41,184 nt of DNA from a virus, in the UHGV virus genome UHGV-1355377, one strand, 5' to 3'. This document shows, one piece after another, positions 3,681 to 18,232 of this stretch. The notes below the pieces were generated by a model, which worked only from the letters and a program-made list of their open reading frames with translations, did no database searches and was not told the origin of the DNA. The position numbers and the translations under genes are program-made. The stretch's first letter is position 1, and every line of letters starts with the position of its first letter.

Positions 3681-3791
3681 CAAGATATTGAATATATCTT
3701 CAACGAAAAAATTCATGAATCATGAACTTTTTCGTTGACATTAAGAAATGAACAATGTATTATATGGTTATAAAGTTCATGTTCATGAACT
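3681..3791. promoter_or_regulatory. Divergent PR/PL-like control region with repeated palindromic operators (GTTCATGAAC-type half-sites)
   Basis: AAGATAT-tgaat-ATATCTT palindrome at 3683-3701. ATTCATGAATCATGAAC at 3711-3727 and AGTTCATGTTCATGAACT at 3774-3791 are near-perfect palindromes. TTGACA (3735-3740), 17-bp spacer, TATTAT (3758-3763) points toward cro. Confidence 0.65.
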
Positions 3792-10601: not shown

Positions 10602-11345
10602 ATGATAGTATGGGCACTATTTGATAGTGGGAACGGATGTTATAAGCGTTCTGCACAAAAGTTTGAAGATATAGAAATATACAGCATAGGTTTGGATATT
10701 GAAAATAAGAATGACCATTTTATTCATCTGAATTTAGCGGACTATTCTTATATGTTTAATGATAATAAATTATTCAAAGTTTTAGACAAATTACCAAAGC
10801 CAGATTTAATCATTGCAAGCCCACCATGTGAAAGCTGGTCAGTAGCTAGTGCAATGAAAAATGGTAATGCTTGTTGGAAAAGAGAAGATGTAACAGATAA
10901 TTTATTTGCACCACAGATATTACCAAGCCCGTTTACTATAAGAACCACAAAAGATTACGAAGATACTAATTATGTTTATGAACGACAATTTTTAAAAAGA
11001 GTGAATGGTGAGTTAACGGTTTTTAATACTATAAAAATTATAAAAAAGTACCAACCTAGATATTTCATTATTGAGAACCCGGCTAATGGTAAAATTTGGG
11101 AATATATTGAAGATGTCTTGAATTTTAAACTACCATTTAAAAATTTAACCAGGTATAACAATTATGATTATCCATTACAGAAGCCCACGAAATTTGCCAG
11201 TAATATTCATTTGGGATTGAAAAATAAAGTTATTAAACAAGAAATTGCCTGGAGCAATTTTTCCAAAAGCTATAATGAACGATCAAATATTCCAGAAAAA
11301 TTAGTGGATGACATATTTAAAAAAGTTTTAGAGAAAAATAAATAG
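10602..11345 (+). CDS. C5-cytosine DNA methyltransferase catalytic-domain protein, short (motifs I, IV, VI, VIII present; TRD and motifs IX-X absent)
   Basis: Motif I LFDSGNG. Motif IV PDLIIASPPCESWSVAS, matching the PDL..GGFPCQ.FS.AG pattern with catalytic Cys. Motif VI PRYFIIENP (ENV). DYPLQKPTK resembles motif VIII. Only 247 aa. Confidence 0.5.
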   Translation: MIVWALFDSGNGCYKRSAQKFEDIEIYSIGLDIENKNDHFIHLNLADYSYMFNDNKLFKVLDKLPKPDLIIASPPCESWSVASAMKNGNACWKREDVTDNLFAPQILPSPFTIRTTKDYEDTNYVYERQFLKRVNGELTVFNTIKIIKKYQPRYFIIENPANGKIWEYIEDVLNFKLPFKNLTRYNNYDYPLQKPTKFASNIHLGLKNKVIKQEIAWSNFSKSYNERSNIPEKLVDDIFKKVLEKNK

Positions 11346-11400: not shown

Positions 11401-12561
11401 ATGAAATTAACAACAGAAAAAATAAATGAACTGTTAGGTGTTGATGATGCCTACAAAGCGCCAGAAGCGCTCATGAATATATTACTAAATCGTGATAAAC
11501 GAGAAATCGTGTTTAACAGATTTTTAGAAATAGAAAAGGATTTAACTTTCGATTGGTTTCACGAATATTTTCAAGAAGAACATGCTGATCGAAAGCAAAA
11601 GAAACAAGACTTCACGCCAAACTCAGTTGGAAAAGTGTTGTCACTGATTTTAGACCATTCAGAGTCAACTTTAGATGTTGCTGCTGGCACTGGTGGATTA
11701 ACGATAAAAAAATGGTGGAACGATGGACAACCAACAAACAACGAGTATCTTTGCGAAGAGCTATCAGACAGAGCAGTGCCATTCTTACTATTCAATTTAA
11801 TGATTAGGGGCATGAAAGCTCAAGTGATTCACGGTGATAGCCTAAGCGGTGTGACGAAAAAAGTATATATAATTTCAGATTACGAATTAACAGAAATAAA
11901 CGAAGAATTAGCAATTGAAAAGGTAGATGCTGTAATTTCGAATCCGCCCTACTCAGCAAAATGGGATGCTAGTCCAACGTTGCTAGATGATCCAAGGTTT
12001 AGTCATTACGAAAAGTTAGCACCAAAAACAAAAGCAGATTTTGCATTCTTGCTACATGGTTTTTATCGTTTAAAAGATTCGGGGACAATGGCAGTTGTCT
12101 TGCCGCACGGTGTTCTTTTCCGTGGTGCCGCTGAAGGTGTTATTCGTAAAAAATTATTAGAAGATGGCAGTATTGATGCAGTTATTGGATTGCCTGCTAA
12201 CTTATTCTTTGGCACGTCAATACCAACGGTAATAATTGTTTTAAAGAAAAATAGACAAACACGTGATGTCATGTTTATTGATTCTAGCAAAGAATTTGAT
12301 AAAGGAAAAAATCAAAACTCTTTATCAGACGATCACATCAATAAAATTATTCACACATATAAAGAACGAAAAGACATCGAGAAATATGCTCATTTAGCTA
12401 GCTATGATGAAATAACAGAAAATGACTTTAACTTGAATATACCAAGATTTGTAGACACATTCGAAGAAGAAGAGCCAATCAATCCATTCGAGTTATTAGC
12501 AGATATAAGAAAAACGAATGAAGAGCTAGCTAAAGCAGAAAAAAACTTGTCTCAATGCTAG
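11401..12561 (+). CDS. N6-adenine DNA methyltransferase, HsdM-like (gamma-class) orphan
   Basis: Motif I VAAGTGGL, motif IV NPPYSAKWD, and HsdM-like MAVVLPHGVLFRG block. 386 aa; no hsdS or hsdR nearby. Confidence 0.75.
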   Translation: MKLTTEKINELLGVDDAYKAPEALMNILLNRDKREIVFNRFLEIEKDLTFDWFHEYFQEEHADRKQKKQDFTPNSVGKVLSLILDHSESTLDVAAGTGGLTIKKWWNDGQPTNNEYLCEELSDRAVPFLLFNLMIRGMKAQVIHGDSLSGVTKKVYIISDYELTEINEELAIEKVDAVISNPPYSAKWDASPTLLDDPRFSHYEKLAPKTKADFAFLLHGFYRLKDSGTMAVVLPHGVLFRGAAEGVIRKKLLEDGSIDAVIGLPANLFFGTSIPTVIIVLKKNRQTRDVMFIDSSKEFDKGKNQNSLSDDHINKIIHTYKERKDIEKYAHLASYDEITENDFNLNIPRFVDTFEEEEPINPFELLADIRKTNEELAKAEKNLSQC

Positions 12562-12627: not shown

Positions 12628-13584
12628 ATGGCTAAAAATTCAAAACAAACAGAGAGAACCTTTGCCAGTTATTTTGCTGAATGGATTGCAACTTATAAAG
12701 AAGGGGCAATTGCAGAAATATCAGTCAATAAGTATTACTATGCGTTAGATTTTATTTTAAAAACAATACCGTCGTTAAAAATAAAGGATTTAGACAGACG
12801 TGCCTATCAGAATGTGTTGAACGAGTACGCAAAAACACACGAGCGACAAACAACAATGGATTTTCACCATCAAGTGAAATCATGCATCCAAGACATTTTC
12901 CATGATGGGTTGATAGAAAGAGATCCAACATATAAAGCAGTAATAAAAGGACGTCCTCCAGTTCGAAAGAAAAAGAAAAAATTTCTACAGAAAGAAGAAC
13001 TAAGAAAGCTTATAAGTTCATTGGACTTAAGTCCCGAAATTAGTATTGACTGGTTTATTTTAATTATAGCAAAAACGGGTCTGCGTTACGCAGAAGCATT
13101 AGCTTTAACGCCAGCGGATTTTGATTGGTCAGCTCGCACACTAAGAGTAAACAAGACATGGAACTACAAAAGCACCCAAGGCGGCTTTAAGAGTACGAAA
13201 ACAACGAGTTCAGAAAGAACAATTAGCATAGATTTTCAAATTGTTGGTCAGTTTCAACTAGTGATTAAAGATTTGCCAGCAAATGAACCGATTTTCGTTG
13301 AAAAATTTGAAGATGGTTCTTATAAAAGACAATTCAATTCAACTTACAACAATTTTCTAGTGAGCGAATGCAAGCACTTAGGGATAACACCTATCAGCCT
13401 GCACGGTTTACGTCACACGCATGCAAGTGTATTGCTTGCTGCTGGAGTATCGATTCATAGTATTTCCGCTCGTTTAGGTCATGCGAATATAGGTGTTACA
13501 CAAGAAACTTATGCACATGTTTTGGACGAGTTACAAAGAAAAGACGATGAAAAAATGATGGGCGCATTAATGCAGTTAGCTTAA
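12628..13584 (+). CDS. Second tyrosine recombinase (Xer/phage-integrase family), internal to the prophage
   Basis: C-terminal catalytic signature HGLRHTHASVLLAAG...ARLGHANIGVTQETYAHV (R, HxxR, Y). 318 aa. RBS AAAGAGGTG. Confidence 0.8.
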   Translation: MAKNSKQTERTFASYFAEWIATYKEGAIAEISVNKYYYALDFILKTIPSLKIKDLDRRAYQNVLNEYAKTHERQTTMDFHHQVKSCIQDIFHDGLIERDPTYKAVIKGRPPVRKKKKKFLQKEELRKLISSLDLSPEISIDWFILIIAKTGLRYAEALALTPADFDWSARTLRVNKTWNYKSTQGGFKSTKTTSSERTISIDFQIVGQFQLVIKDLPANEPIFVEKFEDGSYKRQFNSTYNNFLVSECKHLGITPISLHGLRHTHASVLLAAGVSIHSISARLGHANIGVTQETYAHVLDELQRKDDEKMMGALMQLA

Positions 13585-13601
13585 ACGAGGTGAATCAATA
13601 C

Positions 13602-14108
13602 ATGGCTAAAAAATGGACAGAAGATGACGACATTTATTTAGAATATTTTGTTTTTGAAGGCGACACTTTAGTAGAAGAAGCTGCTGATTTTTTAGGTAGA
13701 AGCTTTGGTGCTGTTTGTACGAGGCTAACAGAATTGAGAAAAAAAGACCCAGAAGTGCGGTATTTAAAGCGGCGTTGGTCTAAAAAAGAAGATGATTTTC
13801 TACGTAGAAACTACAGGTCCATATCAACAAATGATTTAGCATTAGCATTAAATAGAACTACTGAAGCAGTTAAATCTAGAAGAGCATTTCTCGGTTTGAC
13901 TTTGATACGACCAATAACGCCAAGAAAAGAAGAGATACTTGAATTGATTAAGAAAGGTTATTACAGACCACAAATAGCAAAAGCTCTCAATATAGATGAA
14001 AAATCACTTAGTAAATTTTTAAAGATAAACAATATATATTGTCCAGCTGTACCTTATGAAAAACGAACAAAAGAAGTAAAAAAATATATTTACAAACAAT
14101 ACAGATAA
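13602..14108 (+). CDS. Myb/SANT-like tandem-repeat protein with C-terminal HTH
   Basis: Two repeats: WTEDDDIYL...GRSFGAVCTRLTELRK and WSKKEDDFL...NRTTEAVKSRRAFLGL (W-x2-E-D-D-x-L...R). C-terminal ILELIKKGYYRPQIAKALNIDEKSLSKFLK is HTH-like. Start likely ATG 13602 after GAGGTGA. Confidence 0.5.
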   Translation: MAKKWTEDDDIYLEYFVFEGDTLVEEAADFLGRSFGAVCTRLTELRKKDPEVRYLKRRWSKKEDDFLRRNYRSISTNDLALALNRTTEAVKSRRAFLGLTLIRPITPRKEEILELIKKGYYRPQIAKALNIDEKSLSKFLKINNIYCPAVPYEKRTKEVKKYIYKQYR

Positions 14109-14112
14109 AAAC

Positions 14113-14347
14113 ATATCGCAATCACAGTTAGATGCTGAAAGACGCCTTCGAAAAAATAAATTATAGAAGGAGGTGAGGGGTTTCTTCTCTTACCACCGGG
14201 ACAGCAAGCAAATAACTCAGCTCAGCTTCTACTTTTATATCTTTGAACAGGCGGTTCCAAGATATAAAAACCTAGAGGGCAGCTAGCGAGCATGCCGGAT
14301 AGTGTGCCATGACCTAGTCTTTCAGCATCTAGCTGTGATTGCGATGT
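14113..14347 (+). repeat. 235-bp element: 29-bp inverted repeat (14115-14143 / 14317-14345; 31 bp with G-U) enclosing a 173-bp segment with a central 13-5-13 palindrome (14236-14266)
   Basis: ATCGCAATCACAGTTAGATGCTGAAAGAC versus the reverse complement of GTCTTTCAGCATCTAGCTGTGATTGCGAT. The single difference is a G-U pair only in the + strand RNA. Inside, TATATCTTTGAAC-aggcg-GTTCCAAGATATA has one mismatch. Sits between the Myb-like gene stop and the yopX start. Confidence 0.7.
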
Positions 14348-14377
14348 AAGTTTCTGTTTAGAAAGCGAGTGAAGAAA

Positions 14378-14791
14378 ATGATTCCAAAGTTTAGAGCATA
14401 TTCAGTAAAAGAAAACATAATGTATTATCCTGATGAAGATAAAAATGTAGAATGGACTATTGATGATGATACAGGATTTATAGCGCCTCTTATAAATCTA
14501 GAAAATGGCATGTGGGGAATGATTGATAAGTATGTTCTCATGCAATCAACAGGCTTGAAAGACAAGAACGGCGTTGAAATTTTTGAGGGTGATATAGTTA
14601 AGGTCACGGTGAATAATTATGGAACTGGTGAACGATTTGAACAAATCGATAAAGTTGTTTATGAAGACTGCAGATTTTGTTTTAATGACGGCTTTTATTA
14701 CTCAGAAACTATCAAATATTCTGGATATGAAAATAAAGAAGTCATCGGAAATGTCTACGAAAATCCAGAATTATTGGAGGGAACAGAATGA
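14378..14791 (+). CDS. YopX-family phage protein
   Basis: MIPKFRAYSVKEN...GLKDKNGVEIFEGDIV is typical of YopX N-terminal sequence. Likely start ATG 14378, in frame with the track ORF. Confidence 0.65.
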   Translation: MIPKFRAYSVKENIMYYPDEDKNVEWTIDDDTGFIAPLINLENGMWGMIDKYVLMQSTGLKDKNGVEIFEGDIVKVTVNNYGTGERFEQIDKVVYEDCRFCFNDGFYYSETIKYSGYENKEVIGNVYENPELLEGTE

Positions 14792-18158: not shown

Positions 18159-18232
18159 TGGCGTGTAGCTCAATTGGTGAGAGCGGTTGGTTTTCAATCA
18201 AGTACATGCAGGTTCGACTCCTGTCACGTCAA
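18159..18232 (+). tRNA. tRNA-like gene, anticodon UUC (Glu) by manual folding
   Basis: Acceptor TGGCGTG/CACGTCA with one G-U. D arm GCTC-AATTGGTGA-GAGC. Anticodon arm GTTGG-TTTTCAA-TCAAG with U33, A37 and one G-G mismatch at 27:43. Variable loop TACAT. T arm GCAGG-TTCGACT-CCTGT. No encoded CCA. Confidence 0.55.

Follow-up and report, generated by a model that had tools for sequence, protein, structure and literature searches.

Epigenetic invertons such as PsrA/CreX in S. pneumoniae and EfiA in E. faecalis are hsdM-hsdS-invertase loci that also hold an inverted hsdS' (PMC7672463). The subject of this study is a 235-nt element closed by inverted repeats at positions 14113-14347 of UHGV virus genome UHGV-1355377; this stretch of 41,184 nt, hereafter the window, belongs to a temperate Enterococcus-type siphophage, with E. 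faecalis phages as its nearest database relatives. Like the described loci, the phage locus encodes an HsdM-type methylase beside a tyrosine recombinase, the latter being 50% identical to one from such a locus, and relatives of the element hold an inverted partial gene copy in inverted repeats downstream of the recombinase. Unlike them, the phage module has no hsdS, the fragment in these relatives is a decayed methylase 3' end, and the repeats bracket this fragment only and not active plus silent gene copies. The interior was moreover inverted in none of 17 assemblies, and the repeats tolerate G-U pairs in the manner of an RNA.

In the R64-type shufflon, the Rci tyrosine recombinase is associated with sfx repeats that flank alternative pilV C-terminal segments. 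The element resembles it in that a short antisense C-terminal gene end is found in inverted repeats beside a tyrosine recombinase, but it comprises a single segment that does not stand behind a constant gene part, and its inversion makes no new protein. Phage intergenic RNase III hairpins, such as the early sites of T7 and the lambda sib site in the retroregulation of int, are simple structures of 40-60 nt with internal loops. Similar to these, the element places a long double-stranded RNA (dsRNA) helix in a phage operon, just behind a recombinase gene (in the window with one small gene between), and could uncouple the stability of the flanking messages. Its helix, in contrast, encloses a branched interior of 150-175 nt, and cleavage is here putative. 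With ERIC, Correia and RUP sequences it shares the character of a transcribed insert of ~100-250 nt that is closed by inverted repeats and forms a long RNA hairpin, whereas it is single copy, module-specific, fixed in orientation and without target duplication.

Taken together, the best explanation is that the element belongs to a family of non-coding elements closed by a hairpin, small and so far undescribed, in temperate Enterococcus-type phages. Comparison between its members supports the view that the closing helix, termed P1, is probably maintained by selection on pairing in the plus-strand RNA.

A closing helix conserved across four phage lineages

The element in the window consists of the following parts:

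14113-14143, plus strand: 5' strand of P1 and left inverted-repeat arm (repeat finder; homologous arms in L028, L029/L030, L064 and L149/L150)
14144-14316, plus strand: interior of 173 nt with a branched predicted fold, poorly conserved between lineages
14317-14347, plus strand: 3' strand of P1 and right inverted-repeat arm (repeat finder and pairing alignments)

The closing helix is real and far above chance. Its two arms pair over 31 positions, comprising 29 Watson-Crick and two G-U pairs (U14128-G14332 and U14114-G14346), and on this the repeat finder and an earlier reading of the window from its letters alone (the sequence-only reading) agree. The complementarity can be extended weakly to 14100/14360 (44 nt, 82%). 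With up to 3 mismatches allowed, a 26-mer from the arm occurs at only two sites in the window, where 0 are expected from 100 shuffles. The predicted fold energy of the plus-strand RNA is -108.2 kcal/mol (z = -10.2), compared with -94 kcal/mol (z = -8.0) for the minus-strand RNA and a z-score of -8.2 for the element as single-stranded DNA.

Homologues were found in four lineages, 17 assemblies and 8 distinct sequences; the 32 copies fetched derive from these 17 assemblies and include repeat fetches of the same contigs. The element always occurs within a module encoding an HsdM-like methyltransferase, a tyrosine recombinase and a Myb-like helix-turn-helix (HTH) protein, and each positive locus holds one copy, between open reading frames (ORFs) of the module and in sense orientation with the flanking genes. 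Close copies (96-99% identical) with the same place and orientation as in the window are present in 8 IMG/VR E. faecalis prophage contigs, one NCBI assembly (L028) and 2 metagenome contigs. The divergent lineages were reached by a search through the neighbouring HTH protein, which is 57-62% identical between lineages, and bring the length range of the element to 198-235 nt:

L029/L030: element of 211 nt
L064: element of 198 nt
L149/L150: elements of 212-213 nt

Beyond these, some 115 further loci of the HTH family, including that of Listeria phage B025, were scanned for long helices and yielded no element. A family profile run with nhmmer on 809 kb of related DNA found one copy per positive locus and no extra copies. 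The pattern of both arms had 0 matches in 185,579 species-representative genomes, a degenerate right-arm pattern had 5 chance matches there with the left arm absent, and patterns from the 3' domain of the element had 0 matches. In IMG/VR, an exact-pattern scan recovered the 8 E. faecalis contigs and nothing else. By blastn, the window element had no match in phage and plasmid collections and the L029 element none in the phage collection; the L149 element matched only Listeria hsdM there, and weakly. The element is thus rare, single copy and module-specific, and not a dispersed repeat.

Folding with covariation on homologues, the comparison suggested by the sequence-only reading, showed the pairing to be conserved: across seven sequences from the four lineages, both members of 18 of the 26 P1 pairs have changed without loss of pairing, and the covariation term for P1 is -8.96 kcal/mol. 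Invariant are only the ends (ATC...GAT) and an inner CUG/CAG. The helix measures 26-28 bp in L029/L030, L064 and L149/L150, and 26-31 bp over all lineages. Among six sequences, 97.1% of the cells are paired on the plus strand and 93.0% on the minus strand, compared with 30-41% in slid controls, and 0 of 500 shuffles matched the observed covariation score.

The departures from perfect pairing are likewise asymmetric between the strands. Seven columns depart by wobble alone on the plus strand and one on the minus strand. When two U-G changes in an inner palindrome (see below) are included, the events favour the plus strand by ~9:1, with a binomial p of ~0.01 that treats them as independent in a small sample from four lineages. 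The stem of L029 contains 5 G-U and 0 A-C positions and that of L064 3 G-U and 0 A-C; in these two lineages, 4-5 positions per 26 are not Watson-Crick, and nearly all of them are G-T on one strand. Between L029 and L064, the stem has changed from G-C to A-U, G-U to A-U, U-G to C-G and C-G to U-G, the route expected for an evolving RNA helix. Column 14128/14332 is U-G in the window, L029 and L064, C-G in other E. faecalis variants and A-U in L149.

A putative RNA processing or insulation element

We tentatively favour the reading that the element is the fossil of an invertible cassette and is retained today as an RNA hairpin, transcribed together with its neighbours, that acts in cis in processing or insulation. 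The element follows the HTH gene, whose stop codon is at 14106-14108, and precedes yopX, which starts at 14378. Its co-transcription with the plus-strand operon is to be expected, because a promoter and terminator scan found no such site inside it and the neighbouring genes are all on the plus strand; it is probably transcribed within the sense-strand early mRNA. The closing helix evolves via G-U intermediates and double compensatory changes, with the interior drifting freely, and would loop the insert of 150-175 nt out of the polycistronic message. Near-perfect dsRNA of at least about 20 bp characterizes RNase III substrates structurally, and P1 reaches this length in all lineages, so that a helix of this kind, longer than 20 bp, would be an expected substrate of the host RNase III. 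Cleavage might part the int-HTH transcript from that of the downstream gene (methylase or yopX), tune how stable the two are relative to each other and liberate an RNA of ~170-200 nt. In this the element may be comparable to the intergenic RNase III sites of phages and to lambda sib. A processing site at the operon boundary, one of the proposals of the sequence-only reading, seems plausible.

An RNA is favoured over DNA inversion because the stem tolerates G-U departures only, and because pairing is kept at freely varying positions, which two separate protein-recognised sites would not need. It is further favoured because the orientation is invariant in the 17 assemblies and because inversion has no coding or promoter consequence.

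Several points weigh against this reading. Transcription, folding and RNase III cleavage of the element are all predictions, and a plain processing site would not need an interior of 150-175 nt. Inverted repeats and a tyrosine recombinase in one module are the exact geometry of an inverton. The ~9:1 wobble asymmetry is modest evidence, with only four lineages known, and a C-to-T mutation spectrum biased towards one strand could have inflated it; a hairpin of plus-strand single-stranded DNA is possible as well, since no other DNA mismatch destabilises less than G-T. In the commonest E. faecalis variant (19 of the 32 fetched copies), 14127/14333 is A-C, which gives G-U on the minus strand, and two other E. 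faecalis variants have a perfect stem. The sequence-only reading had argued for plus-strand RNA selection from a single G-U pair in the window; since the commonest close relative carries A-C, this pair is not diagnostic, and the argument holds through the distant homologues instead. RNAalifold and the per-lineage minimum-energy folds showed no shared interior fold beyond P1 and a small hairpin at a Shine-Dalgarno (SD)-like box. Finally, judging from the loci compared, the element is dispensable, as most such modules are without it (L018-L024, L031, L065, L151 and B025).

If the RNA reading is true, the element would define a new RNA motif, structured and conserved, among the temperate phages of enterococci and their relatives, with an unusually clear covariation of the closing helix. 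A type I restriction-modification (R-M) 'epigenetic inverton' cassette would then have been recycled into an RNA-level element, and the novelty would lie in an inverton-derived element, closed by inverted repeats, that may behave as a structured RNA. The family is narrow and dispensable, and we consider its significance moderate despite the clean covariation and the unusual evolutionary history.

Origin of the element and alternative explanations

The origin of the element is indicated by its best-preserved relatives. In antisense, the interior of L149/L150 encodes 'FSLVAVVANLMDRSSKKQSRVRILSMLDELAVTDTSKELIEATKAVL', a match for the C-terminal tails of methylases of the HsdM type (E = 8e-9 to Listeria HsdM and E = 2.7e-7 to the L028 methylase). 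At the DNA level, the antisense L150 interior is 81% identical to Listeria hsdM over 59 nt (blastn between fetched sequences), and an L149 query against the public collection found Listeria hsdM with 79.7% identity over 55 nt (E = 6e-3). A profile of the methylase C-terminus scored 24.2 bits (E = 6e-6) on the antisense interior of L150, 18.9 on that of L149 and 7.8 on that of L029, the last still being above all of 3600 shuffled frames (best 5.1 bits). The relic is decayed by frameshifts and stops in L149/L150 and is not detectable by the profile in the window lineage (1.1 bits in the L032 variant), so that a relic origin of the window element would follow from homology within the family.

The recombinase points in the same direction. 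The window recombinase (12628-13584) is 50% identical (E = 3e-112) to that of a Listeria locus (L153 293-1261) of the order hsdM-hsdS-int, in which 80-nt inverted repeats flank int. This layout corresponds to the epigenetic inverton described for E. faecalis and other bacteria (PMC7672463). The phage module looks like a derivative of such an hsdM-hsdS-int locus, and we posit that the element is the fossil of an inverted silent cassette of a shufflon or epigenetic inverton, in which a decaying methyltransferase 3' end lies between inverted repeats. Duplicated flanks around both arms (an A-rich leader and a copy of the ribosome-binding site, RBS) were significant in L149 only (p = 0.006) and are not relied on here. 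Past the inverted hsdS' fragment of the Listeria locus there is a terminator-like hairpin (L153 259-291, ATCCCCATCTA…AGATGGGGAT), which is similar to the outermost 10 bp of the arms in L149 (3514-3524 / 3715-3725, ATCCCATCTA / TAGATGGGAT); this resemblance could be due to chance.

Such an ancestry raises the question of whether the element is still an active DNA inverton or mini-shufflon, in which the module recombinase flips the 173-bp interior at the arms and the RNA hairpin is a by-product. Recombination arms were the alternative named in the sequence-only reading, and the relatives of the neighbouring recombinase strengthen it. We regard this main rival as unlikely, although the static features of an inverton are present, with 31-bp inverted repeats and a tyrosine recombinase gene ~530 bp upstream whose Listeria counterpart sits in an inverton layout. 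In L149/L150 the interior consists of part of a gene end in inverted orientation, as is characteristic of silent cassettes in shufflons, and the arms are perfect in several lineages. Dynamic behaviour, however, was not seen: all 32 fetched copies face the same way with respect to the HTH gene, and the interior is inverted in 0 of 17 assemblies from four lineages, where a rare inversion visible only in raw reads would have been missed. Neither would inversion have an evident consequence, as no internal promoter is predicted, the element is never behind a methylase body, stops precede it and also occur in the arms, and a flipped interior would be neither in frame with nor adjacent to the methylase body. 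Against published EfiA inverted repeats and the Listeria hsdS repeats, the arms showed no significant similarity after multiple testing. Site-specific inversion alone, moreover, does not hold whole arms complementary at freely varying positions, nor does it account for non-Watson-Crick positions in L029 and L064 that are nearly all G-T on one strand. If the arms were active recombination sites, the element would constitute a phage-borne inverton with a new layout.

The decay of the relic and the lack of a conserved interior fold might instead indicate a functionless fossil, that is, the scar of an inverted duplication whose arms are matched by quasi-palindrome correction, through template switching or gene conversion, and not by selection on RNA or recombination. 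Its dispensability, with presence and absence between close relatives, would agree with this. Correction, however, predicts perfect arms or random mismatches and not the G-U-only departures seen in L029, L064 and partly in the window. Compact phage genomes also rarely retain 200-235 nt of junk over a divergence such as that of the HTH proteins, and the orientation of the element and its position relative to stop codon and RBS are constant. We therefore consider a functionless fossil rather improbable.

A further possibility, to which we assign little weight, is an RNA that acts in trans. Its loop would be antisense to the 3' end of type I hsdM near the hsdS start and would down-regulate host R-M, a form of RNA-based anti-restriction, or the RNA might be a partner of the HsdS-less methylase module. 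The 80-81% antisense identity of the L149/L150 interior to the Listeria hsdM 3' end is in line with this, and the relic is better preserved than expected of an old neutral one, given arms that differ at most positions between lineages; the element is also found only with HsdM-type methylase modules. On the other hand, in none of the lineages is the interior complementary to the resident methylase gene, the relic is undetectable in the window lineage, the window element is unmatched in phage and plasmid collections, and antisense targets within the window are no more frequent than by chance. A miniature inverted-repeat transposable element inserted into the operon is hardly credible: terminal inverted repeats (26-31 bp), a length of ~200-235 bp, clean presence and absence and three insertion contexts in the module would fit, but the searches described above found a single copy at each locus and no others, target sites are not consistently duplicated, the orientation is constant, and the element co-diverges with the neighbouring genes.

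Comparison with known classes of RNA and DNA elements

An Rfam scan, which had been suggested together with the sequence-only reading, assigned the element to no family. With Rfam 15, the whole window yielded only a transfer RNA (tRNA) at the gathering threshold, the region 13900-14600 yielded only noise at E<=10 (best mir-362, 18.4 bits versus a gathering score of 80), and the L029, L064 and L149 loci yielded nothing within the element at E<=1. The sequence-only reading had also proposed a 6S-like RNA. The element is similar to 6S RNA in its size of ~200 nt and its paired 5' and 3' ends, but it is branched without a central bubble and embedded in an mRNA. No Rfam 6S match was obtained even at E<=10, the fold is not a rod with a central bubble, and the multibranched minimum-energy and centroid folds as well as the absence of an own promoter and terminator speak against 6S RNA.

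An intrinsic terminator was rejected as well, as the scan found none in the element and no U-run follows the helix in L029, L064 and L149. A type I toxin mRNA or small-protein gene was dismissed, since the window holds only a 37-aa GTG ORF, which is not conserved in other lineages. Integron attC sites carry R''/R' boxes (RYYYAAC / GTTRRRY) and extrahelical bases and measure 57-141 nt. The element, with the ends ATC...GAT, a continuous helix and 198-235 nt, is not one of them.

Features of the interior

Within the interior, the following features were recognized:

14166-14180, plus strand: SD-like box GAAGGAGGTGAGGGG (sequence and lineage alignments)
14172-14194, plus strand: predicted 9-bp hairpin that would sequester part of the SD-like box (per-lineage folds)
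14233-14269, plus strand: inner A/T-rich palindrome with 16-nt arms, a 5-nt spacer and one U-C mismatch
14285-14289, plus strand: AGCGA box in the 3' part of the interior, common to all four lineages (weak evidence)

The interior varies between 146 and 173 nt in length and aligns poorly between lineages. Only three features recur: the SD-like box, a small hairpin that includes it, and a 3' block containing AGCGA, which is very similar among L029, L064 and L149. The family consensus of the box is AGGA-N(1-2)-GTGA(A/G), and lineage alignments show no conserved start codon downstream of it; the perfect SD is not kept in L064, where it is degraded to AGAGAGGATGTGA. Counterparts of the hairpin are formed by GGAGGU/ACCUCC in L029 and AGAGG/CCUCU in L064. 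The sequence-only reading had noted an SD-like box without start codon or ORF. The box is present, whereas the second part is not literally correct: the ORF lister reports a 37-aa GTG frame at 14173-14286, the GTG falling inside the box. As this frame is conserved in none of the other lineages, the statement holds in practice.

The palindrome, also described in the sequence-only reading, was recovered by the repeat finder at 14233-14248 / 14254-14269. It is absent from L029, L064 and L149 and confined to the E. faecalis lineage, in which the variants C14241T and C14248T each yield U-G on the plus strand. Between L029 and L064, the 3' interior together with the right arm is 92-96% identical and the 5' interior 61%, compared with 69-78% at third codon positions of the neighbouring genes. 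Because identity differs so much between parts, constraint or recombination history is uneven along the element.

Genomic setting and the three-gene module

The integrase of the phage (195-1499) is encoded on the minus strand, and all later genes are on the plus strand in the order Erf, replisome organiser, two DNA methyltransferases, second tyrosine recombinase, HTH protein, yopX, DUF1642, tRNA-Glu and structural genes. The surroundings of the element comprise:

10602-11345, plus strand: DNA methyltransferase (phrog_2882), directly upstream of the HsdM-like gene, so that two methylases stand in tandem
11401-12561, plus strand: HsdM-like N6-adenine methyltransferase, without HsdS and without an HsdM_N domain
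12628-13584, plus strand: second tyrosine recombinase, separated from the element by the HTH gene
13590-14108, plus strand: HTH protein of 172 aa with Myb/SANT-like repeats, conserved partner of the recombinase; its stop lies 4 nt before the helix
14348-14377, plus strand: spacer and yopX ribosome-binding region, with homology to element-free phages from 14357
14378-14791, plus strand: yopX, the downstream gene, outside the module
18159-18232: tRNA-Glu (anticodon TTC), downstream of an ArpU-like activator region

The module is noteworthy in itself, as an HsdM-like methylase without HsdS is linked there to a recombinase of the inverton type and to the Myb-like HTH protein; on limited literature checks, its biology appears to be undescribed. 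PADLOC defence-system models gave generic methylase matches only. The HTH protein ('D5-like regulator') contains repeated W-x-EDD-x-(Y/F)L…NR(S/T)xxAVxxR units plus a C-terminal HTH, and we speculate that it could provide the HsdS-less methylase with DNA recognition. The module methylases are orthologous across lineages (54-59% identity). In other relatives, int-HTH is paired with C5, Dam-type or N4/N6 methylases.

The order of the genes differs between lineages. It is methylase-int-HTH-element in the window and L028, int-HTH-element-methylase in L029 and L064, int-HTH-methylaseN-element-methylaseC in L149 and L150, and HTH-methylase-int in L065 and L151. In every case, then, methylase, int and HTH stay together, and the arrangements cover all three rotations of a single cyclic order. 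This suggests either a strong functional tie between the genes or an intermediate that was circular or tandem.

From the upstream stop codon to the base of the helix there are 4-15 nt, and from this base to the next RBS 2-4 nt in the three divergent lineages and ~10-20 nt in the window lineage. In L149, the element stands immediately before the next RBS; the methylase halves of L149 and L018 are 82-84% identical, and the two loci differ by a clean indel of the element plus a 13-nt A-rich leader. In the window, a mosaic junction at 14357, 10 nt past the helix, marks the beginning of homology with module-free E. faecalis phages. In VEsP-1, 1_EfsPF36 and Efs 1-1-1, unrelated upstream genes are joined directly to the conserved yopX RBS TTAAGAAAGCGAGTGAAGAAGATG.

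Compared with L028 (1945-2035), the HsdM-like gene of the window is shortened by a 1-nt deletion (12535-12561) that creates an A-run; inversion was rejected as the cause. The L028 frame is ~25 codons longer (…VSMLDELVVDTDESRALIQATKEVLENG) and overlaps the recombinase start. For the shortened window gene, a pseudogene is one possibility and a slippage-prone on/off site another. Some lineages have the methyltransferase in two ORFs, divided between motif I (AAGTGG) and the NPPF motif; these ORFs overlap in L018 (4009-5246), and the element stands between them in L149 (3012-4438) and L150 (2997-4460).

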